From Vicinamibacterales bacterium (GTDB lineage Bacteria; Acidobacteriota; Vicinamibacteria; Vicinamibacterales; UBA8438), in the NCBI GenBank assembly GCA_965214845.1, contig CBDCCO010000007.1, positions 1,137,030 to 1,201,029 of the forward strand: DNA of 64,000 nucleotides, in the 5' to 3' direction. Within the stretch, counting starts at the first letter, position 1, and each line of letters opens with the position of its first letter. The notes below the pieces were generated by a model. The model was not told where the DNA came from. It saw only the letters and a program-made list of their open reading frames with translations, and made no database searches. Shown piece by piece: positions 1 through 60,578 of this stretch. A program made the translations under genes and the position numbers.

Positions 1-514
1 GGTCGGCTTTCGCGGCGCACACCACGTCGAAGACATCACGCACCGGGCTTGTCAGTCCCCGTCTCAGCTTCCCGCGCAGGATCTGGCTGTTCGACAGGAC
101 CGTCTCGACCTTACCGTCAGCGATAGCCTGCTCTTCGGCGCCTCGTGCGCTCGGCCGCAGCCGCGCCAGGTGCAGCACACCGTCTCCGCAGTGGATCTTG
201 ATCTCGTCGACGTTTTCGATCTCGGCTTTGCCACTGATACGTCGCGCGAGGTTGTGTTCGTCGTCCCGCGTCAAGTCGCCGAGGCTCAGGTCTCCTGGCA
301 AGGTGACGTCGATGTCCGTGCTCGCCCGGTGTCCCCACCGCGCCGCCAGCGTCGTGCCGCCTCCGATGTGCGGCTCGATACGCTTGTCGGGCCGCCGGCT
401 GCCGAGTTCGTGCACCGTTGCACGGATTCGTTTCCACAGTCGCGTCGCCGGTTCTGGCAGCTTCAGCTGTTCGCGGTCGTGTTGATCGCGCGGATCTGCT
501 TTGGGTCCGCCCAT
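1..514 (-). CDS. AbiEii/DUF1814-like nucleotidyltransferase (putative toxin), N-terminal ~170 codons; 3' end lies beyond the window edge
   Basis: Not in the ORF track because it runs off the edge. My minus-strand translation from 514: MGGPKADPRDQHDREQLKLPEPATRLWKRIRATVHELGSRRPDKRIEPHIGGGTTLAARWGHRASTDIDVTLPGD...SNSQILRGKL. It has the GGGxxL..RW.HRxSTDID pol-beta NTase signature and is a clear paralog of 51175..52287. The start is uncertain; ATG 514 overlaps the upstream gene by 52 nt. Confidence 0.6.
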   Translation of the reverse strand, partial: MGGPKADPRDQHDREQLKLPEPATRLWKRIRATVHELGSRRPDKRIEPHIGGGTTLAARWGHRASTDIDVTLPGDLSLGDLTRDDEHNLARRISGKAEIENVDEIKIHCGDGVLHLARLRPSARGAEEQAIADGKVETVLSNSQILRGKLRRGLTSPVRDVFDVVCAAKAD

Positions 515-912
515 GTTTCTCTTTCCATCGCGCGGGCTACTTGCCGCCACGTGAATGCGCCTTCCATCCAGGCCGCGAACAGTGTCTCGAAGTCGGCTCG
601 CAGCACCATGTTGATCATCGACTGTTGCAGGTCCGTCGGACTCTCTGCCCGCATCGCTTCGTAGACTTCGTCGCTCGTCGGTCGCTTCGGCCAGCCGCAG
701 CAGTCTCCAATGATCAGTCCCCGGATGGTTCCCGAGTTCCGTCCCACCCGTTCCTGGTCGACTGTCTTGTACCTCGTCGGATCCGCGTACTCGTCGCTGA
801 AGTCCTCGAGCGGCCGCAGTCGTGCCGGTCGTTCCGGGTTCTCTTCCCGGCTGCGCCGCGCGGTTTCCTCGTGGACCCACCGGAACAGTTCGCGGTTTCT
901 TTGCGTGTTCAT
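463..912 (-). CDS. hypothetical small protein, CCGWP-motif family (candidate partner/antitoxin of the downstream NTase)
   Basis: 149-aa ORF of normal composition, with GAGGA 9 nt upstream of the ATG. The blocks GDCCGWPKRPTSDEVYEAMR and AFTWRQVARAM are shared with 52284..52748. In both copies it sits directly upstream of the NTase gene. I recognise no family. Confidence 0.6.
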   Translation of the reverse strand: MNTQRNRELFRWVHEETARRSREENPERPARLRPLEDFSDEYADPTRYKTVDQERVGRNSGTIRGLIIGDCCGWPKRPTSDEVYEAMRAESPTDLQQSMINMVLRADFETLFAAWMEGAFTWRQVARAMERETWADPKQIRAINTTANS

Positions 913-12250: not shown

Positions 12251-12282
12251 GCCGGGGACCGTCGTCCGGAGGCCGCGGCCCG

Positions 12283-14255
12283 CTAGCCGGAAGTTTCAGC
12301 GTTGATCGCGCGTAAGTCACTAGAATTGTGTGATTTATCGATTTCGCAGGTGTTGGCTACTGGCTACATTCGCGGGGTCACTCCCAGCAGCTCGAAGCAG
12401 CGCTGCTGTACCGGCGTGGGCTCGGTGAGCAGCGCGAAGGTGGCGTCGCTGTCGGCCACGCGCATGGTGTTGGCGGTCAGCGTGCCGAGGTCGGAGAGCA
12501 GCGTCCGGAAGCTGTGCACGGGGAGGTCCTCGGCGGTGCGCTTGCGGGCGGCCTTGGCGCGTGCCGCGGGCGAGCGCTTGGCCTTGCGGACCACGGATGA
12601 GCGCTGCCGTTCGGCGGCGGCCGGGTCGTGGTCATCGAAGAGCAGCGGGGCCAGGGCCTGGCGCATGTGCCACTCGACGTAGTAGGCGAGCATGCACAGC
12701 AGGACGTGCGCCCGCACCCGGTCGGCCCGCCGGTGGTAGATCGGCCGCACCTTCAGGTCCACCGACTTGAGGGACCGAAACGCGCGCTCGACCTTCGCCA
12801 GGTCCTTGTAGGCGCGGACGGTCTGCGCGGCATCGAACTGTTCCGGCTCGACGTTGGAACGGACGATGTAGATCCCGTCGAGTTGCTGTTCGTCTGCGAT
12901 CCCGGCCTCGTCGCGATGGAACGCGAACGACTCGTCGGTGATGGTGGTGACGAAGTGCTTGGCGACCTTGTAGCGGTTGACGACCTTGCCGACGCGCACG
13001 CCGATGTCTGCCGCGCCCCGTAGCGGGTCGTTCGGGCGCCGGGTCGCCGCCACAATCGGTTCGAGCTCCTTCTCGGTGGCGGCGAGCAGCTCGTTGCGCT
13101 TGCGGTGCCGCTCGGCGGCGAGCAGCGGATTGCGGCAGACGATGAGCCGTTCGCCGGGGAACTCGTTGCTGGTCACCTCGGCGAGGTCGCGCTCGTCGAA
13201 CAGCGACGGGGTGACGGTGCCGGCGGCCACCAGCTTGCGGATCGTCGGCGCGCGCAGCGTGGTGATCCAGCGCAGCCCGTCGACGCTGGCGAGGTCCTCG
13301 CGGATGCGCGCCGCGGTCAGCATGCCGCGGTCGCCGACGAGCACGACCCGCTGGAGGCCGAAGCGGGAGCGGAGCTTGTCGACCTGACGGGCCACGGTCA
13401 GCGGGTCGCTGGTCGAGCCTTCGAAGACCTCGACGGCGACCGGACACCCCTTGGCCGTGCACAACAAGCCGAAGACGATCTGCAGCGTGCCTTTCTTGCG
13501 GTCGCGGCTGTGTCCGCGTCGGGCGAGCTCGCAGTGCGTTCCCTCCACGTAGCTGGAGGTCAGGTCGTAGAGCACGAGGGTGTGCTCCTGCAGATGGCGC
13601 TTGGCCAGGCGCTGTTCGATGGCCGCCTGCCGCTCGACGAGCCAGTCCATGGCGGCGTACAGCTCGAGCGGGTCGACCTCGCCGAGATTCAACAGGTCCC
13701 CCAGCGTGGAGACGGCGCTCTCGGGGGTCAGGGCGCGGGCGGTGGCCAGCTTCGACTGCGCGTCGATGACGCGCGCGACGATGAGGGCGACGACGAGGTC
13801 ACGGACCCGGCTGGTGCCGCGGGCGAGGAGGGTAGGCAGTCCGAGGCGTTTGAGGGTGCCGAGCACGGCGGCAACGTGCCCGTGGGGGCGGCTGCGGACG
13901 CAGGTGAAGGCGTCGTCGGGATGGACGAGCCGCTCGCCGCGGAGGATGCGGCGCAGGGCCTCGATGGCGGTGGTGGGCAGCTTCGAGAGATTGGCGAGCG
14001 TACGCTTCTTGACACGGCCGCCGTCGCGGTAGGACTCGCGGAGGAGGACGGCGGGCGGCGAGGAGCGGTTGGGGACGCTCTCGATATACATGGTTACACA
14101 TTATAGCACAAACACCACTAATATTATGGACCAACACGCCAACATGACAACCACAATACATGGCTACATTTCGCCACATACAGCACGCCAAAACCCCCGC
14201 AACGCCTTTAGAATCTATGGGTTCCGAAAAACAGGCCTCTGAAACTTCCGGCTAG
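12283..14255 (-). mobile_element. IS1634-family insertion sequence
   Basis: 17-bp terminal inverted repeats: CTAGCCGGAAGTTTCAG at 12283-12299 and its reverse complement at 14239-14255. The non-coding ends are low in GC and there is a single DDE transposase ORF. I saw no clear target duplication. Confidence 0.8.
12364..14091 (-). CDS. IS1634-family (IS4-like DDE) transposase
   Basis: 575 aa: MYIESVPNRSSPPAVLLRESYRDGGRVKKRTLANLSKLP...VVLVGDRGM...YIVRSN...YKDLAKVERAFRSLKS. This is the typical IS1634 N-terminus and YREK-type C-terminus. Confidence 0.85.
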   Translation of the reverse strand: MYIESVPNRSSPPAVLLRESYRDGGRVKKRTLANLSKLPTTAIEALRRILRGERLVHPDDAFTCVRSRPHGHVAAVLGTLKRLGLPTLLARGTSRVRDLVVALIVARVIDAQSKLATARALTPESAVSTLGDLLNLGEVDPLELYAAMDWLVERQAAIEQRLAKRHLQEHTLVLYDLTSSYVEGTHCELARRGHSRDRKKGTLQIVFGLLCTAKGCPVAVEVFEGSTSDPLTVARQVDKLRSRFGLQRVVLVGDRGMLTAARIREDLASVDGLRWITTLRAPTIRKLVAAGTVTPSLFDERDLAEVTSNEFPGERLIVCRNPLLAAERHRKRNELLAATEKELEPIVAATRRPNDPLRGAADIGVRVGKVVNRYKVAKHFVTTITDESFAFHRDEAGIADEQQLDGIYIVRSNVEPEQFDAAQTVRAYKDLAKVERAFRSLKSVDLKVRPIYHRRADRVRAHVLLCMLAYYVEWHMRQALAPLLFDDHDPAAAERQRSSVVRKAKRSPAARAKAARKRTAEDLPVHSFRTLLSDLGTLTANTMRVADSDATFALLTEPTPVQQRCFELLGVTPRM

Positions 14256-14266
14256 GCTTCGCCTCC

Positions 14267-35842: not shown

Positions 35843-35881
35843 ACGGGGTGGTTCCCGGGATGCGTGGCAGTGGCTGCGGCT

Positions 35882-37488
35882 AGGAGTCTGCGCCGCAGAA
35901 AATCGGTGCGACAATCATAGGCGAGCACTCGACGCTGGAAGGACTTGATGTCGACGACGTTTCGCCCCTACTCGCCGGACCAGTCGCTGCTGCTGCCACC
36001 GGACGTGCGGGAGTGGCTGCCGGAAGGCCACTTGGCGCACCACGTCAGCGATCTGGTGGACGGTTTGGATCTGACGGCATTCTACGCCCCGTATGAGGGA
36101 GACGGTCGTCGCAACGCCCCGTATGACCCGCGGATGATGGTGAAGGTGCTGCTCTACGCGTATGCGACGGGGGTGTTCTCGTCGCGTGGGATCGCCCGGG
36201 CGCTGGAAGAGGACGTGGCGTTCCGGGTGTTGGCGGCGGGCAACTTTCCGCAGCACCGGACGCTGTGCGAATTTCGGCGCCGGCACTTGGAGGACTTCCA
36301 GGCGCTGTTCGTGGAGGTGGTGCGTCTGGCGCAGGAGTTGGGTCTGGCTCGCCTCGGCAAGCTGTCGGTCGACGGGACGAAGGTGCGTGCGAACGCGAGC
36401 AAGCGCAAGGCGATGAGCTACGACCGGATGGCGGAGGCGGAACGGCGTCTGGAAGGCGAGGTCGCGGCGCTGTTGCGCCAGGCGGACGAGACCGACGAGA
36501 CCGAGGATGCGTGCTTGGGCGCCGAGGTTCGGGGCGATGAGTTGCCGGCGGAGTTGCGTCGGCGGGAGGCGCGTCTGGCAGCGATCCGGGCGGCGAAGGC
36601 GCGGTTGGAAGCGGCGGCTCGGGCGGCGGACGACGCGCGGGGTCGGCAACCTGGGCAGGACCGGAACCCGAAGGGCGGGCGGCCGTACAAGCGGGCGTAT
36701 GGCGAGCCGGACGAGAAGGCGCAGAGCAACTTCACGGACCCGGAAAGCTCGATCATGATGACGAGCAACGAGGGCTTCCAGCAGTGCTACAACGCGCAGG
36801 TGGCGGTGGACGCCGAGCACCAGTTGGTGGTGGCAACGGGTCTGACGGCGAACGCGAGCGACCAGGGTGAGTTGCCGGTGTTGCTCGACACGGTCAACGA
36901 GACGCTTGACGCGCAGCCGGCGACGGTGCTGGCCGACGCGGGGTACTGCAACGAGCGAGACTTGACGGACCTGGAACGGCGGGGCGTTGACGGGTATGTG
37001 GCGGCGGGCCGGGAGGGCAAGCAGGCGGTTACCCGCAATCTGGAGGAACATCCGGCGACGGGTCGGATGATAGACAAGCTGAAGACGAAGGCGGGCCGGG
37101 CGGTGTATGCGCAGCGCAAGTGGTTGTCGGAGGCTCCCAACGGCTGGATCAAGCACGTGCTGGGCTTCCGGCGCTTCAGCCTGCGTGGACTGGCGAAGGC
37201 GCGGTGCGAGTGGGACCTGGTGTGCCTGGCGCTCAACGTCAAGCGCCTGCACGTGCTGAAGGCGACGTAGAGGGCGGGGCATGAGGCTCGCAACGGCGAC
37301 AAATCGACGCGGATCGCGGCCTCTGGCGGGCCATGTGGCCCGTGATGACCGATTTTCGCCTTCGGTTCGTCAACGGCCGCAAAATCTACCGCGCCCTGCC
37401 GACCGACACCGTTGCCCCGGCACGTGACTCAGGTCGTGAACTCACGACCCTTTCGTGCCGCAAATCTCCTGCGGCGCAGACTCCTAGC
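35882..37488 (+). mobile_element. IS5/IS1182-family insertion sequence
   Basis: 19-bp perfect terminal inverted repeats: CTAGGAGTCTGCGCCGCAG at 35882-35900 and its reverse complement at 37470-37488. CTAG is a possible target duplication but is ambiguous because it is palindromic. Confidence 0.8.
35945..37270 (+). CDS. IS5/IS1182-family transposase
   Basis: 441 aa: ...APYDPRMMVKVLLYAYATGVFSSRGIARALEEDVAFRVLAAGNFPQHRTLCEFRRRHL...LSVDGTKVRANAS...VLADAGYCNE... This is a DUF772-type N-terminus plus a DDE domain. Confidence 0.85.
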   Translation: MMSTTFRPYSPDQSLLLPPDVREWLPEGHLAHHVSDLVDGLDLTAFYAPYEGDGRRNAPYDPRMMVKVLLYAYATGVFSSRGIARALEEDVAFRVLAAGNFPQHRTLCEFRRRHLEDFQALFVEVVRLAQELGLARLGKLSVDGTKVRANASKRKAMSYDRMAEAERRLEGEVAALLRQADETDETEDACLGAEVRGDELPAELRRREARLAAIRAAKARLEAAARAADDARGRQPGQDRNPKGGRPYKRAYGEPDEKAQSNFTDPESSIMMTSNEGFQQCYNAQVAVDAEHQLVVATGLTANASDQGELPVLLDTVNETLDAQPATVLADAGYCNERDLTDLERRGVDGYVAAGREGKQAVTRNLEEHPATGRMIDKLKTKAGRAVYAQRKWLSEAPNGWIKHVLGFRRFSLRGLAKARCEWDLVCLALNVKRLHVLKAT

Positions 37489-48480: not shown

Positions 48481-48856
48481 AGGGCGCGCCCGGCCCGAGA
48501 TCGCTCCCATCCATGCACCTGGGACACGACGGGTCCCGGACTGCATAATTATTTTCAGACTGCATAAGCATGAAAGTGGTTACCCCAAAAATTTGGGGTT
48601 ACCCTTTTCGCCTGCAAGCCGATGGGAATCAGCAGAACTCGTTCTTCAGCAACAAATTGCGGACAGAAAAACGACTTTCGCCCCTGAGGGCCAAAAAGCC
48701 GTCCAATTCTGCTTGCCGGGCCCGGCAAGCAGAAAACCGCTCTATTCACTAACCGGCTGAACGACCGAGGCGGGCCCCCAGGGTGGGCCCCCTCCGAGGG
48801 CCCCCGGCCGGCCGGGATCCGGCCAAGACTCCGCCAGACGGCCGGCGGCCGATCCC
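48481..48856. repeat. right copy of the ~370-bp inverted repeat (AT-rich core 48521-48748)
   Basis: Reverse complement of 8518-8881. It lies between macrodomain gene B (reading leftward) and macrodomain fragment C (reading rightward). Confidence 0.9.
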
Positions 48857-48929
48857 TGCGGCTGGCCGACCGGCCATGAGGCGCCGGCACGCAGGCGGAG
48901 CACCGGCGAGAAAGGAACGGAGGAGCGCG

Positions 48930-49052
48930 ATGGAGAACGTCCGGCTGAGCGACGGTGACATTCTCGAGGCGGGGGCGCCGTGCGTCCCGGTGAACCTGGC
49001 CGGCGCCATGGGACGCGGCCTCGCGGGGGCGGCGCGCTGCGTCTCGCCGGGC
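48930..49052 (+). pseudogene. macrodomain gene fragment C (N-terminal ~40 codons only)
   Basis: GGAGGAG RBS and then the ATG at 48930. MENVRLSDGDILEAGAPCVPVNLAGAMGRGLAGAARCVSPGL matches the GDLL..ALVNxVNxxGVMGKGIA N-terminal macrodomain block. The similarity ends where the helicase gene 3' end begins. Confidence 0.5.
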
Positions 49053-51159
49053 CTAGCGCGCGGCGGCGGCGTAGCCCGGCTCGGTCCGCCCCGCGCCGTG
49101 GGGCCCCAGTGGCCGCTCCCGCGCCGTGGCCCCGGCCGGCGCCGGTGCGGCGTGCGGCTCTGGCGGCTCGGTGCGCTCGATCAGCCGGTCGGGAATGGAC
49201 TCGATGAAGGGCGAGCGCTCCACGCGCTTGAGCCTGGCGCCGTGGGCGATCCGCAAGGGCGCCGTCAGGTGCAGCTCCCTGCGCGCCCGGGTCATGCCGA
49301 CGTAGGCTAGGCGGCGCTCCTCCTCGATGGCCGCCGCCGGGGTCGCCGGCCTCCGACACCGTGCGGTGGTGCGGCAGCCGCTCGGCGTCGAAGCCGGCGA
49401 GGATCACCGTGTCGAACTCGAGCCCCTTGGCCGCGTGTAGTGTGGACAGGGTGACCGGCTCGCGGCCCGCGCCGGCCTCGCGCGCGCCGTGCGCGGCCTC
49501 GCGGAGCTGCCTGCAGCGTTCGACGAACCCGGCGCTCACCTGGCGCGGGTCCTCGCGCCCGGCGCCGGCCGCCCCGCGCCCCTCGCGCGCGAACTCGCGC
49601 GCGTCGCGCACCAGCTCGTCGATGTTCTCGATCCGCTCGATCTGGCGCTTGTCGTCGCCCTTGCGCAGCGCGTCGCGGTAGCCGGTCAGCCTCTGCGCCC
49701 GGACGATGACGTCGGCCGGACCCAGGCCCTGCCAGCCCTCCAGCGTCCGGATTTTCTCGAGCCGGCGGGCCGCCGCCGCCGCGTCCCTCGGGCTCAGCGA
49801 GCCGTCGCCGAGGGCCGCCGCGACCCGCTCGCGGCAGGGCGCCGAGGATGGACCGGCACGGTCAATGCGGTCGAGCCCGGCTGCGCTGACCCGCTCGCCG
49901 GGCGGCATCGCCAGGAAGCGCCGCGCAGCGGCGCCGGCCCCGCCGCCCCCGGCCGCGATCTCGACGCAGGCCAGCATGTCCCGGATCTCCGGCCGCTCGT
50001 AGAACGATTCGCCGCCGGCGATCCGGTACGGGACCGACGCGTTCCTGAACGCCGACTCCATCGCGCACGCCTGCGCGTTCGTCCGGTAGAGCACCGCGAC
50101 CGGCCCGCCGCCGGCCGTCTGCCGCCGGCGGGCGGCCTCGGCGGCGTAGTGGGCCTCGCCGGCCGGGTCCGCCGCCAGGTGCAGGCGCACTGGGCCGCCG
50201 GCGTCGCGGGTCGTCTCGATGGCGCGGTCGATGCGCGCCGTGTTCGGCTCGATGACCGCCCGGGCCGCCTCGAGGATGTTCCCCGTCGAGCGGTACGTCA
50301 GGTTCAGGTCGATGCGCCGCGCGCCCTCGAAGTCGTCCTCGAAGCGCATGATGTTCTCGATGCTCGCCCCGCGCCACTCGTAGATCGCCTGGTCGGGGTC
50401 GCCGACCGCGAACACGTTGCCGCGCTCGGCGGTCAGCTGCCGGATGAGCACGTACTGCGGCAGGTTCGTGTCCTGGTACTCGTCGACCAGCAGGTGCGGG
50501 TGCTCCCGCTCGCCGGCCGCGGCCACGTCCCTGTGCTCGTGCAGCAGCCGGATGGTCCAGAGCATCATGTCGTCGAAGTCGAGCGTGTTGCGCTCGGCGA
50601 GCTTGTCCTGGTACCGTCCGGCTATCGCCGCCGTCTCGGCGGCCTGCCCGCCCGCCCCCCACTGTTTCGGGTCGTCGGGGCTCTCGAGCCTGTTCTTGAT
50701 CCCGCTGATGCGGTGCAGCACGGCGTTCGCGCCGAGCGGCCCGCCGCGGCCGCGGACCTCGCGCGCGGCCTCGCGCAGCAGCGCCTGCCGCTCGCCCGCC
50801 TGCGCCACGGCGAAGTCCGGCGGGATGCCGACGCGCGCGCCGTCCCGGCGCAGGATGCGGCCGCACAGGCGGTGGAAGGTCGAGACCCAGACGCCGTTGC
50901 CGTGGAGCGGCCCGAGCATCTCGCGCACGCGCCCGGCCATCTCGCCGGCTGCCTTGCGCGTGAAGGTGATGGCCGCGATGCGGGCGGGGTCGATGCCGCG
51001 GCTGCGCACCAGGTGGGCGATCCGCGCACAGATCACCCGGGTCTTGCCCGAGCCGGGCCCGGCCAGCACCAGGGTCGGCCCGTCGGGGGCCGAGGCGGCC
51101 TCGCGCTGGCGGTCGTTGAGCCCCTCGAGAGGCGGCCTTTCCCAGGCGCAGCCGTCCAT
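49053..51159 (-). pseudogene. UvrD/Rep/PcrA-family helicase with an apparent 1-nt frameshift near 49,325-49,345
   Basis: LNDRQREAASAPDGPTLVLAGPGSGKTRV (Walker A), LLVDEYQDTN, VGDPDQAIYEWRGA, TLHAAKGLEFD. The C-terminal motif, (A)AAIEEERRLAYVGMTRARRELHLT...SPFI, is in another frame (ORF 49053..49295). The total length of 2107 nt is not a multiple of 3. This could also be a sequencing error. Confidence 0.7.
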
Positions 51160-51275
51160 TGCCTGCGGTGCGGGCTAGCGCTCGCGGCCACGGTCGCGGT
51201 TGCGCGAGTCGCGAGGCTGCTGCCTGCCGGCCGGGTCCGGCCCCGGATTCGGCTCCGGTGCGTCGGGCGGGCTGC
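51115..51275. repeat. ~160-bp direct repeat, copy 1 (helicase start plus upstream gene tail)
   Basis: GTTGAGCCCCTCGAG.GGCGGCC..TCCCAGGCG..GCCGTCCAT.GCCTGCGGTGCGGGCTAGCG... aligns with 53265-53420 at roughly 80% identity with one 12-nt indel. Confidence 0.8.
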
Positions 51276-52287
51276 CGGGCCGGAGCGAGATGGCGTCGGG
51301 CGCTCTGGCGGGCTCCTCTGCCTGGTCGCCGATCTCGACCATCTTGCCGAGCCCGGCGCTGCTGCGCGCCTCGTTCAGGCGTCGCTCCGGCGTCCCGTCG
51401 TCGCTGTCGAACGCCACGCCGGTCCACCTCTTCTTGCTGAGTGCGTCGAGGCTTGCTTCCAGTCCTCGCCGACGCAGCGTGCTGTTCGCGGCGATGTAGG
51501 CGCCGATACCGGATTGAGTCAGTGCGGCGTGTGCCTGTTCCCGCTGGTAGGTCTCGGTCCGCGTTCCGCCCGCGGGGCTCGTCGTCTCGATCGCGATGCC
51601 GATGTCGGTCGTCCGGATTCGCACGTGCCTGTAGCGGTGGTTCCACGCAGCGTCGGCTGCCGCGTCTCCCATGCCGTCCAGGTATTTCTCGTAATGTGGC
51701 GGCACCCCTCGCAGCGTTGTCTTCGCGTCCTCGACCATTTCGTCGTTCATGGTCAAGAGGTTGTGACAGATGGTTCGTCTCTTGGCCTCGTCGAGGCTGT
51801 TGACTGCGATCTCGAGCGCACGGGGGTCTTCTTCGGCGGCCACTGCCATGTCGAAGGCGTCGCGTGTCACGCCGCGGTCGGTACGGTAGAACTTTCCCCG
51901 CAGGATCTGCGCGTTGTCGAGGACCACCTCGGAACGTCCTTCGACGTCGGTTCGGCTTTCGAGCCCTGGCAGCTGTGGCGGGATTGCCGCAACGTCGAGC
52001 TTGCCGTTCTTGAGTACGACGATCAGCCGCTCGCGGGTGCTGCCCTCATGTTTTCCCCCCGTGGCTGCTGCCAGGTCCAGTGGTCCGCCCTTGCCAGCGT
52101 CGGCGACGTTGTCGCGGTCCGGCAGAAGGATGTCGATATCGGTGCTTTCGCGGTGGTGCCACCGTGAAGCGAGCACGGATCCGCCGCCCAGCATCGTGCG
52201 GCTCTCGCCGCCTGACGCCGTGGCGATTCGGTCGATGGCCTTGCGGTGCTGCTTCCACAGCGTGCGCGCTGGTTCCGGCAGGGTCAT
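51175..52287 (-). CDS. AbiEii/DUF1814-like nucleotidyltransferase (putative toxin), copy 2
   Basis: The ATG at 52287 overlaps the upstream stop (ATGA). MTLPEPARTLWKQHRKAIDRIATASGGESRTMLGGGSVLASRWHHRESTDIDILLP...NAQILRGKFYRTDRGVTRDAFDMAVAAEEDP... The C-terminal ~25 aa (PEPNPGPDPAGRQQPRDSRNRDRGRER) are homologous to the tail of 53325..53756. Confidence 0.65.
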   Translation of the reverse strand: MTLPEPARTLWKQHRKAIDRIATASGGESRTMLGGGSVLASRWHHRESTDIDILLPDRDNVADAGKGGPLDLAAATGGKHEGSTRERLIVVLKNGKLDVAAIPPQLPGLESRTDVEGRSEVVLDNAQILRGKFYRTDRGVTRDAFDMAVAAEEDPRALEIAVNSLDEAKRRTICHNLLTMNDEMVEDAKTTLRGVPPHYEKYLDGMGDAAADAAWNHRYRHVRIRTTDIGIAIETTSPAGGTRTETYQREQAHAALTQSGIGAYIAANSTLRRRGLEASLDALSKKRWTGVAFDSDDGTPERRLNEARSSAGLGKMVEIGDQAEEPARAPDAISLRPGSPPDAPEPNPGPDPAGRQQPRDSRNRDRGRER

Positions 52288-52748
52288 TGGTGTGGCTTCG
52301 CGTGCCGGTTGACGTAGTCGGCGAGCTCCGCGCTGTAGTGGTTGTTCTCGTGCATCGCCTGCGCCAGTTGCCGCCAGGTGTACGCCCCGTCGAGGTAGCC
52401 GAATGCGACCGTGTCGGTCGTCCCTTCGACGATCAGCACACGTACGATCGCCCGCTGGCGTGCGGTTCGCACCGGCGTGCGCATCGCCTCGTAGAACTCT
52501 CGTGCTGTCGGGCTCTGCGGCCACCCGCAGCACGCCCGGTTCAGCAGCCCCGCGATTGCTGCGCATTCGGGTCCGCGCCCGCTTGTCGGGAATCGCGGGT
52601 CGGGGTCGGCGTACGCGTCGCTGAACGCGTTGGGCGGCAGCACCGCCACCGGCTGCGTCAGTGCTCCCTCTTCGCGGCCCCGGCGCTTGAGCTCCGTTCG
52701 TATCCAGGCGTTTCGGTCGGTGGGCCCGGCGGCGTGACCACTTGGCAT
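52284..52748 (-). CDS. hypothetical small protein, CCGWP-motif family, copy 2
   Basis: I chose the ATG at 52748 (MPSGHAAGPTDRNAWIRTELKRRG...NRACCGWPQSPTAREFYEAMR...GAYTWRQLAQAMHEN). The ORF-track extension to 52961 is a read-through of the CRISPR-like repeats, visible as periodic RPAHA..MNP. Confidence 0.6.
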   Translation of the reverse strand: MPSGHAAGPTDRNAWIRTELKRRGREEGALTQPVAVLPPNAFSDAYADPDPRFPTSGRGPECAAIAGLLNRACCGWPQSPTAREFYEAMRTPVRTARQRAIVRVLIVEGTTDTVAFGYLDGAYTWRQLAQAMHENNHYSAELADYVNRHAKPHQ

Positions 52749-52780
52749 TTTCCGAGGATAGCAGTGTCTCACGAACGCGG

Positions 52781-52990
52781 GGTTCATCCCGGCCTGCGCG
52801 CGCCGGGCGGATCCGTACCGGTCGTGTCGCTCCGATCTGCGCTTCGTCCCCGCGTGCGCGGGGCGGATCTGTCGAGCCTGGAGCGATGACTGCGGGGCTG
52901 GGTTCATCGTCGCGTGCGCGGGGCGCACGAGTGGAACCTGACAGGTATTGACTGGGGACACGGCTCATTCCCGCCCGGGCGGGGTGGTCT
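52781..52990 (-). CRISPR. degenerate orphan type I-E-like CRISPR mini-array (4 repeats, 3 spacers)
   Basis: Plus-strand repeats: 52781 GGTTCATCCCGGCCTGCGCGCGCCGGGCGGATC (33 nt); 52841 GCTTCGTCCCCGCGTGCGCGGGGCGGATC; 52901 GGTTCATCGTCGCGTGCGCGGGGCGCACG; 52962 GGCTCATTCCCGCCCGGGCGGGGTGGTCT. The period is 60/60/61 nt and the spacers are 27/31/32 nt. The reverse complement of repeat 2, GATCCGCCCCGCGCACGCGGGGACGAAGC, resembles the I-E consensus. Confidence 0.6.
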
Positions 52991-53264
52991 CGATCCGGTG
53001 CCGTCCGTGCCGCGGGTGATGAACTTGGCGTGCACCCGGCCGCTCCTCTCCGAAGCGGAACAGTCGCGCGATTGCCCGCTCAATGGCGACTCAGTGGGCG
53101 AGACCTTGCGCTTCGGCCGTCTCGGTGTGCGTGTTCGCCTACCGCGCGATCTGGTTCAGTTTATTGCCGATGCGGGCGACCTGCCGGCTGCCGGGTGCAC
53201 TCGCGCTCGGTGCCGACCGCCTGCGCGGCACCGGCCCACTGCGTGGTTCGCTTGATGGGCGGTA

Positions 53265-53420
53265 GTTGAGCCCCTCGAGCGGCGGCCGCTCCCAGGCGTG
53301 GCCGTCCATCGCCTGCGGTGCGGGCTAGCGCCCGTGGCCGTGGTCATGGCCCCGGTCGCGGTTGCGCGGGTCGGGAGGGAGTTGCCTGCCGGCCCAATCC
53401 GGGCCGTTGTTCGGCTTTGG
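53265..53420. repeat. ~160-bp direct repeat, copy 2 (contains a 15-codon remnant of the helicase start at 53265-53309, minus strand)
   Basis: The remnant MDGHAWERPPLEGLN compares with the intact helicase N-terminus MDGCAWERPPLEGLN at 51159. The repeat also covers the 3' tail of 53325..53756. Confidence 0.8.
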
Positions 53421-53756
53421 ATCATCAGGCTGGCCGCCCTGCCGGAGGGGGACCTCGCGCGCGTTCCGCAGGGTCTCGGACGTCCCGGCCGCCGCCCGGG
53501 CCGCGCCCGAGCCGGCGGGTTCGCCGGGTCCGCCCGGCGCGTCCTGGCCGCCGCGGCCGAGTCGCCGGCCCAATGCGCCGAGGCCGGCGCCGATGGCGTC
53601 GTTGAGCGGGTTGCGGGCCTGGGCGGCGTTGCCCGTCATGATCCCGGTCGTCACCTGGGACTGCGTGTCCTCGATGGCGCTGGCCGTGCGCGACACCGCC
53701 GGGGCGGCCTTCGAGATCGCGCTGCCCGCTGCCGCGCGCAGCTCCTTGTTCGCCAT
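53325..53756 (-). CDS. hypothetical protein
   Basis: 143 aa: MANKELRAAAGSAISKAAPAVSRTASAIEDTQSQVTTGIMTGNAAQARNPLNDAIGAGLGALGRRLG.., with the tail ..PKPNNGPDWAGRQLPPDPRNRDRGHDHGHGR. Confidence 0.45.
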   Translation of the reverse strand: MANKELRAAAGSAISKAAPAVSRTASAIEDTQSQVTTGIMTGNAAQARNPLNDAIGAGLGALGRRLGRGGQDAPGGPGEPAGSGAARAAAGTSETLRNAREVPLRQGGQPDDPKPNNGPDWAGRQLPPDPRNRDRGHDHGHGR

Positions 53757-59825: not shown

Positions 59826-60578
59826 CTACGGGTCCTCGGACGCCCTCTCGCCGGGCGCCTCGGCCTCTGGTCCGTGCGGACAGGCGTCGGCGCGCGCCGG
59901 CATCGGCACGATGTCCGCGCGGTCTGCCGCCGGCCGGCGAGTCCGCGGCGTCCGTTCCCCCATCCGTTGCGCGACTCTGGCGAGCCACCTCGCCGACCAG
60001 CCTTCGAGCTCACTGCTCTGGTAGGTGATCACTCCGTTGGTGAGCACTGCCTCGGTCTTCGCGTCCGGCACCTGCCCGCTCTCTTCCCCGGAGTTGTCCA
60101 TGATCGTCAGCTCGTCGAAGAGCTCGACCGTCTCCTCGAGGTTGCGCAGGCTCTGTCGGTACTGGTCCGCGATCTGGTGAATCTTGACCGGGTGCCCGGT
60201 CTTGTGCCGGACCCGCTGCTCGATGCGGCTCACGTTGATGTTCGGCGAGGCCGTCCCCAGGTAGAAGCCCTGGATGCGGTAGCCGAGCTGGCGTGCCGCC
60301 GCGACGCGCTCGCGGCCCCACTCGTTGCTGTAGCCGCACTCGACTCCGGCGTTGCGCCGCTCGCGCAGTGCGCGTTCGAGCTCGCCGTCGAGCAGTATCG
60401 CGCTGCGCCGGCGGGCCTCCGGGGTCTCCCAGCCCCCCATCCCGTCGGCCACGGCGTCGTAGTCGAGCAGCAGGTCCGGCATCTGGCTGGCGTTGTCGCG
60501 CCGCCAGGCCGACTTGCCGCTGCCCTCGCAGCCCATCAGTACCGTGAACGTCCCGCGGTTGTCCCAGTTGCTCCCCAT
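59826..60578 (-). CDS. zeta-toxin-like / AAA_33-type P-loop kinase
   Basis: 250 aa: FTVLMGCEGSGKSAWRR (Walker A) ..LLDYDAVADGMGG...YRIQGFYLGTASPNINVSRIEQRVRHKTGHPVKIHQIADQYRQS... No upstream epsilon-like ORF is evident. Confidence 0.55.
   Translation of the reverse strand: MGSNWDNRGTFTVLMGCEGSGKSAWRRDNASQMPDLLLDYDAVADGMGGWETPEARRRSAILLDGELERALRERRNAGVECGYSNEWGRERVAAARQLGYRIQGFYLGTASPNINVSRIEQRVRHKTGHPVKIHQIADQYRQSLRNLEETVELFDELTIMDNSGEESGQVPDAKTEAVLTNGVITYQSSELEGWSARWLARVAQRMGERTPRTRRPAADRADIVPMPARADACPHGPEAEAPGERASEDP

Follow-up and report, generated by a model that had tools for sequence, protein, structure and literature searches.

A putative MenAT/AbiE-type toxin-antitoxin module with a small partner of a new family on a mobile element of an acidobacterium

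Few enzymes that act as toxins or in phage defence are as abundant as nucleotidyltransferases of the MenT/AbiEii type. Mutation of the four AbiEii motifs (hG[G/S], R...DhD, K...R and +DxxD) abolishes toxicity (Dy et al. 2014, PMC3985639). The MenA partners of the MenT enzymes are structurally unrelated to one another, yet they can induce auto-phosphorylation of the toxin on Ser/Thr, as was shown for MenA1 and modelled for MenA3 (PMC11375011). Partners of DUF1814 toxins other than AbiEi, namely MenA1 and the COG4861-type MenA2, are already known (PMC11375011), and it has recently been proposed that structurally unrelated antitoxins all neutralise MenT-type toxins by forcing auto-phosphorylation of the active site. 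Here, we describe a two-gene module in a 64,000-nt stretch of the genome of a Vicinamibacterales bacterium (Acidobacteriota), referred to as the window. On the minus strand, the gene of a 154-amino acid (aa) protein, termed the small protein, is followed by the gene of a 370-aa nucleotidyltransferase (NTase), and the two open reading frames (ORFs) overlap in ATGA. An original prediction had described these ORFs, their coordinates and their translational coupling as a candidate toxin-antitoxin (TA) or abortive-infection variant, and the arrangement is present in the sequence as described. We consider it fairly probable that the module is a MenAT/AbiE-type TA system whose antitoxin belongs to a new, unrelated family. 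Since DUF1814 toxins with diverse partners are established, we do not rate it as a new kind of system; what we rate as new is the antitoxin family.

The nucleotidyltransferase

The 370-aa protein is a DUF1814/AbiEii/MenT-type NTase. The Pfam profile AbiEii (PF08843) matches it at 25.6 bits, compared with a gathering cut-off of 22.5, and the same profile matches 22 of 29 NTase homologues (best E value 4.8e-9). When these 29 homologues, with identities down to 28%, were aligned, R42, H45, R46, S48, D50, Q127, I128, K132, R135, R142, D143 and D146 were invariant, and G34-G36 and D52 were at least 90% conserved. Motifs I-II are defined as hG[G/S] and, ~13-15 residues further on, DhD, the first Asp of which has an Arg at position -4 (PMC3985639). 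Motif III is a Lys in hydrophobic context with a downstream Arg, and motif IV is +DxxD. In the NTase, motifs I-II read L33-G34-G35-G36 ... R46-E-S48-T-D50-I-D52 (residues 33-56, LGGGSVLASRWHHRESTDIDILLP), motif III is found in A-Q-I-L-R-G-K132-x-x-R135 and motif IV in R142-D143-A-F-D146. The conserved residues correspond to T39, D41, K137 and D152 of MenT1 (residues from PMC11375011), the spacing being 14 residues from K132 to D146 and 15 from K137 to D152. In the loop R46-x-S48-x-D50-x-D52, S48 is separated by one residue each from the preceding Arg and from the first catalytic Asp. The same arrangement occurs at R76/S78 of MenT3 and a similar one at R37/T39 of MenT1, which are sites of antitoxin-induced auto-phosphorylation (PMC11375011).

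The AlphaFold2 model of the NTase had a predicted local distance difference test score (pLDDT) of 89 and a predicted TM score (pTM) of 0.84 and was confident to residue 326. A pol-beta NTase domain with a helical part (residues 1 to ~200) is followed by an alpha/beta C-terminal domain (~200-320), with the subfamily-conserved blocks HRY, SGIGAYL.ANST and GW.G.VFDS.D..P..RL, and by a disordered tail (327-370). The best Foldseek match was Helicobacter pylori JHP933 (4OK0; E 4e-5, TM score 0.5 on the target, 15% sequence identity), which we take to be a DUF1814 protein. Further matches were ANT(2'')-Ia, TM1012 and MenT1 (8AN5/8AN4), those to MenT1 having E values of 3e-3 to 1e-2. Together with the Pfam match and the motifs kept throughout the alignment, these fold matches bear out the earlier assignment of the protein as AbiEii/DUF1814-like; its catalytic residues are in place.

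The small protein and its pairing with the NTase

The small protein represents a family that has not been described before; it is predicted to be all-alpha and has no relation to AbiEi/COG5340, COG4861 or MenA1. No family was found in Pfam, NCBIfam, PADLOC or PHROGs, whether the protein was scanned alone or 16 members were scanned singly, and a profile search of PDB sequences gave nothing relevant. In a profile search of 1.84 billion representatives (E<=1e-3), the family comprised 454 clusters at 50% identity. Its AlphaFold2 model (pLDDT 86, pTM 0.76) consists of seven helices, with a conserved extended segment LPPxAFSDxYA after the first one, and Foldseek found no match to it in the PDB (best E 3) or in BFVD (best E 0.6). 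Residues P38, F42, C73, G75, W76, P80, Y86, A88, Q98 and R126 are near-invariant. The window protein contains the blocks CCGWP, EFYEAMR and YTWRQLAQAM. The first of these had been regarded as conserved; it is present here, but other members carry CAGWG, CAGWR or CAGWD, so that only C-x-G-W and P80 are kept.

The absence of family matches and of fold matches in the PDB and BFVD led us to reject several assignments. None of the 16 members matched an AbiEi Pfam profile at E<=0.1. The model has no beta wing, and AbiEi (6Y8Q) and helix-turn-helix proteins are absent from its Foldseek matches, which is in line with the earlier view that the partner is neither AbiEi nor COG5340. Likeness to MenA1 (the antitoxin chain of 8AN5) was rejected, as neither the profile search of PDB sequences nor Foldseek gave a match to it. 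A HEPN domain (Rx4-6H), the partner in HEPN-MNT modules of type VII, was rejected as well: R126 is kept, but the His seven residues on becomes Glu, Ala or Arg in paralogues and the Rx6H motif is not conserved, and Foldseek gave no HEPN fold match. A sub-threshold match to TNP-like_RNaseH_C covered 19 residues and is regarded as chance.

Paralogues in the genome (7.36 Mb, 70.8% GC) number ~14 for the NTase and ~11 for the small protein. With a single exception, they are located within 0.87-1.51 Mb of contig C7, and small and NTase genes are nearly always neighbours. The set comprises approximately nine intact pairs, one pair split by an insertion, and three near-identical 491-aa copies (C7:5622842-5624317, 1394-1396 kb and 870-872 kb), in which ~158 N-terminal residues are fused in frame to the NTase. 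Homology of this N-terminal domain to the small protein could not be demonstrated, the hhalign alignment being collinear but weak (12% probability). A diverged second pair at the start of the window, likewise noted in the original prediction, was recovered. There, the NTase ORF overlaps the small ORF by 52 nt, and the NTase (~380 aa) is intact in the genome sequence.

The small protein was detected in 13 of 40 relatives; these 13 belong to a single taxonomic family, and their genomes hold as many as 15-16 copies. The distribution of the NTase mirrors that of the small protein, except for one genome with a weak small-protein match only. A sample of 250 genomes of the phylum gave positives in that one family only, and the distribution among relatives is patchy. 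In 14 genomes, 59 of 82 small genes were immediately followed by an NTase match in the same orientation; small-only loci (23/82) were more frequent than NTase-only loci (12/75), several of which are fragments or fusions. The adjacency of the two genes is not due to chance: dozens of diverged copies show both families side by side in an unchanged order, and the pairing, noted in the original prediction for two copies, extends far beyond these. Megablast searches of phage and plasmid collections gave no match, nor did a search for related loci with the small protein alone as query.

Metagenomic relatives with the pairing range from close (L051, L052, L053 and L007, a Vicinamibacterales metagenome-assembled genome) to distant (L055), and the 4-nt ATGA overlap is shared with L007, L051, L052, L053, L055 and L056. 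In relatives, the module occurs near transposases, integrases, a primase-helicase and HEPN/MNT and HicA genes. One natural fusion of the small protein to AbiEii exists (P0137), and at L056:1175-3132 a zeta/AAA_33 kinase is fused to the small protein and followed by the NTase. Between six relatives, the ratio of non-synonymous to synonymous substitution rates (dN/dS) ranged from 0.19 to 0.33 in the small gene and from 0.17 to 0.33 in the NTase gene, and dN was similar for both. Low ratios with matched dN indicate that both genes are protein-coding, constrained by purifying selection and co-inherited. The module combines the general features of type II, IV and VII TA modules: co-directional overlapping genes, conserved pairing, multiple copies, patchy distribution and linkage to mobile genetic elements.

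P-loop kinases of the zeta/AAA_33 type were also observed elsewhere: directly upstream of the small gene at L042:2375-3911, ~600 nt downstream of one NTase paralogue in the genome (C7:971307-973766), and in the window itself at 59826-60578, 7 kb from the module. At L010:7170-11110, where the NTase is 65% identical, genes for a Hen1 methyltransferase and a Pnkp kinase-phosphatase-ligase directly follow the NTase gene. A general linkage to RNA repair was rejected, as Hen1/Pnkp were found neither in this genome nor at any other locus fetched.

Cargo insertion, chimeric tail and surrounding features

The region of 31-61 kb in the window is an element present three times in the genome, a putative integrated conjugative element. 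The copy at C7 3.43 Mb does not contain window positions 51286-53257; it has a single copy of the repeat, and the 143-aa gene stands directly before the helicase gene. In the window, the additional block is flanked by direct repeats of ~180-190 bp that are 76% identical (Table 1). The copy at 1.50 Mb has the cassette and a further 350-bp deletion, and both ORFs are intact in two element copies (100% and 97.6% identity). By this comparison, the cassette is a ~2-kb cargo insertion in the putative conjugative element. Besides the two genes, the inserted block holds a decayed fragment of clustered regularly interspaced short palindromic repeats (CRISPR) and a fragment of a multi-copy element (53007-53228). 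The latter has at least 8 copies in the genome, and its ORF ends in ...IGNKLNQIAR, which we take to resemble the C-terminus of MobC-type mobilisation proteins. It was also considered as a CRISPR leader, which was rejected, since its copies do not lie beside arrays.

The insertion between ~190-bp direct repeats accounts for the chimeric C-terminus of the NTase. The protein is collinear with its closest relative from L051 (351 aa) up to ...EEPARAP (~residue 330); downstream of that point, the sequence matches that of the 143-aa gene at its 3' end and continues through the intergenic region into the first 17 helicase codons. In the alignment with L051, ~38 residues resembling the 143-aa protein stand in place of the native tail of ~20 residues. 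The tail had been called chimeric and homologous to that of the 143-aa protein from the outset, and the breakpoint agrees with this. The native tails of NTase paralogues are likewise rich in Pro and Arg.

The ATG used as the start of the small gene is backed by homologues of 153-154 aa with the same start position. Counterparts of its extended -10 element were found in L051 (TGCTATCCT), L052 (TGCTATCGT) and L009 (TGATATGCT) and end 6-7 nt before the ATG. Such a conserved element so close to the start codon indicates that the mRNA of the two genes is probably leaderless. The GC content at third codon positions of the two cassette genes is 0.72 and 0.81, while that of neighbouring genes is higher, mostly near or above 0.9.

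Table 1. Features of the module and its surroundings in the window
Feature	Coordinates	Strand	Remarks
Small protein gene (P0002, 154 aa)	52284..52748	-	putative antitoxin/regulator of a new family; seven helices predicted
DUF1814/AbiEii/MenT-type nucleotidyltransferase gene (P0001, 370 aa)	51175..52287	-	putative toxin
Chimeric 3' end of the NTase gene, last ~37 codons	51175..51285	-	from the 3' end of the 143-aa gene; inside the lower direct repeat
Direct repeat, lower copy	51108..51285	.	first 17 helicase codons, intergenic region and tail codons; bounds the ~2-kb cargo insertion
Direct repeat, upper copy	53258..53447	.	5' fragment of the helicase gene, intergenic region and tail of the 143-aa gene
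Extended -10 element TGcTATCCT	52755..52763	-	ends 6 nt before the small-gene ATG; from sequence comparison
Decayed type I-E-like CRISPR fragment, four repeats and three spacers	52781..52990	-	directly upstream of the cassette, same orientation
Small-protein paralogue, 149 aa (second module copy)	463..912	-	32-39% identical to the 154-aa protein
NTase paralogue, 5' part (second module copy)	1..514	-	ATG at 514; runs past the window start
Gene of a 143-aa low-complexity protein of the putative conjugative element	53325..53756	-	source-like sequence for the substituted NTase tail

The ORF of a UvrD-type helicase (48742-51159, minus strand) is out of frame near 49300, and the C-terminus expected for it (MTRARRELHL...) is found in a separate ORF at 49053-49295; this gene looks frameshifted or affected by an assembly error. 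An insertion sequence of 1.6 kb (35878-37488) has ~25 near-identical copies in the genome, and another of 2 kb (12273-14258) has three.

Proposed function, rival explanations and relation to known systems

In the reading that we favour, the module would be a bicistronic, probably leaderless TA-type unit that an integrated conjugative element carries as cargo. The homology to MenT1/3/4 and AbiEii suggests that the NTase would add nucleotides to the 3' acceptor ends of tRNA and thereby stop translation. The 154-aa protein would be its cognate neutraliser, binding the NTase and pushing the invariant active-site Ser48 towards the bound nucleoside triphosphate, so that the toxin would phosphorylate itself and become inactive, as in MenAT1 and MenAT3. 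Phosphorylation of Ser48 is our best guess at the mechanism, because unrelated MenA partners can induce Ser/Thr auto-phosphorylation (PMC11375011), and we count the invariant R-x-S-x-D-x-D loop as support for it. Toxicity, the tRNA target and neutralisation are likewise suggested by homology and gene arrangement. Many paralogues, a patchy distribution and the prevalence of small-only over NTase-only loci are population features like those of TA systems.

Several observations weigh against this reading. The PF08843 match to the NTase spans only positions 6-50 of the 238 in the profile, corresponding to motifs I-II, and the PADLOC match to AbiEii is weak (E 0.018). Sequence searches with the NTase reach no solved structure, including no solved MenT, and therefore place it in a remote subfamily. 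The enzyme carries an extra C-terminal domain of ~100 residues, the isoelectric point (pI) of its core is near-neutral (6.8), and its C-terminal tail has been swapped, a change confined to the disordered, poorly conserved end. The small protein is basic (pI 8.5), in contrast to many acidic antitoxins, and synteny and fusions are all that suggests a physical interaction of the two proteins.

Alternatively, the two genes may encode a non-toxic enzyme and an adaptor that serve the conjugative element, with the small protein as specificity or regulatory subunit. The NTase would then modify a nucleic acid, a small molecule or a protein, for example in anti-defence, in establishment in the recipient or in RNA-end chemistry. 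Such a role would suit the conserved C-terminal domain, which is absent from MenT/AbiEii, the presence of non-toxic NTases, ANT(2'') and CCA-adding enzymes, among the structural neighbours, the location of the module among cargo genes, and the P-loop kinases of the zeta/polynucleotide-kinase type that are occasionally linked to it, along with a single case of linkage to Hen1-Pnkp RNA repair genes. We nevertheless regard this alternative as unlikely, since the NTase shares the DUF1814-specific motifs III and IV (K..R, +DxxD) and the RxSxDxD loop with toxins whose activity is proven. A patchy distribution with ten to sixteen diverged copies in a genome is what one expects of TA modules and not of a housekeeping or single-purpose enzyme, and the excess of small-only loci also speaks against this alternative. 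Very little credence is due to the idea of a decaying, non-functional relic on a heavily rearranged element. The recombined NTase tail, the broken helicase gene and insertion sequences nearby, the one paralogue split by an insertion and the in-frame stops in several relatives would be expected of a relic, but both ORFs are intact in two element copies, no catalytic residue is missing, comparisons with five independent relatives give dN/dS values well below 1, and the tail was exchanged where the protein is disordered and poorly conserved.

A link to CRISPR was considered in two forms, either addiction of the CreTA kind under a transcript like CRISPR RNA, or a module that guards or exploits arrays. 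Upstream of the module and co-oriented with it, decayed type I-E repeats are present in the window, in the second element copy, at L009:4820-5450 (~10 repeats) and at L052:5034-5180 (3 repeats), and I-E-like repeats are found within a few kb in L053 and L007. The genome also owns I-E arrays with related repeats (C7:942.3-943.9 kb, 947.1-947.5 kb and 2127-2131 kb). However, the linkage is confined to the closest clade, with NTase identities to the window copy from ~68% up; of 40 loci of distant paralogues in relatives, one had a single repeat-like match and none had an array nearby, and a general CRISPR linkage was rejected for this reason. None of the three spacers has a target in or near the cassette or in its promoter; a promoter belonging to the cassette itself is predicted beside the ATG. 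CreTA-like control was rejected on the missing spacer matches and the absence of repeats from distant paralogue loci, and a CRISPR-linked function is on the whole very improbable. The CRISPR fragment is probably a relic carried along with the cassette. We read the association as one old juxtaposition of CRISPR and module that was inherited by a clade and travels as a block, and not as general functional coupling. Outside the window, solitary diverged I-E-like repeats with 3 mismatches in the 22-nt core were observed at C7:1019149 and C7:1430368, each ~60 nt before the start of a gene for a 120-aa membrane protein; one such gene is closely followed by an NTase paralogue pair.

A bolder form of the favoured TA reading, which we regard as quite doubtful, is that the 154-aa protein founds a new antitoxin fold limited to one family of soil Acidobacteriota and controls a C-terminally extended MenT-like toxin via induced phosphorylation of Ser48. 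In some members, a zeta/polynucleotide-kinase-like P-loop kinase, fused as in L056 or encoded beside the module, might take over or reinforce this step, forming a kinase-adaptor-NTase system in which the toxin or its RNA substrate would be phosphorylated in trans. As regards the TA reading itself, a further unrelated partner family with a confident, unmatched fold, opposite a toxin with an invariant phospho-acceptor Ser, would provide an independent natural test of forced auto-phosphorylation. In a little-studied group of soil Acidobacteriota, one putative TA family has expanded to 10-16 copies per genome, a scale as in Mycobacterium tuberculosis, with most copies on conjugative or other mobile elements, and ~454 unannotated clusters of small proteins could receive a name.

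Among described systems, Panacea-type 'promiscuous' antitoxin domains are those of DUF4065. The small domain recalls them in being occasionally fused or adjacent to other toxin-like domains (zeta/AAA_33 kinase, Uma2 nuclease, DUF6166), but these are single examples, some of them perhaps gene-calling artefacts, and the NTase is by far its dominant partner. JHP933, encoded in the plasticity zone of H. pylori, is the best structural match to the NTase model, and both genes lie on a mobile island. It presumably lacks the extra C-terminal domain, and we know of no comparable small partner. With the AbiE type IV TA system of Streptococcus agalactiae and Lactococcus (PMC3985639), the module shares the PF08843 match, all four toxicity motifs and a bicistronic operon on mobile elements; in contrast to AbiEi, the partner has no N-terminal winged helix-turn-helix domain and no match to COG5340 or AbiEi_1-4, and is half the size. 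In the MenAT systems of M. tuberculosis (MenT1/MenA1 and MenT3/MenA3; PMC7450476, PMC10435456, PMC11375011), as in the window, the DUF1814 NTase motifs G-G, R-x-S/T-x-D-x-D, K and +DxxD are found, the antitoxin gene stands upstream and is translationally coupled, and the Ser/Thr phospho-acceptor position is shared (S48 in the window NTase). The small protein differs from the MenAT antitoxins: neither its sequence nor its predicted fold resembles MenA1, MenA3 or any chain in the PDB. Its NTase has no detectable sequence match to solved MenT proteins and has, in addition, the alpha/beta C-terminal domain and a disordered tail rich in Pro and Arg. Unlike MenAT, the module belongs to one family of Acidobacteriota, in which it is present in 10-16 copies per genome.

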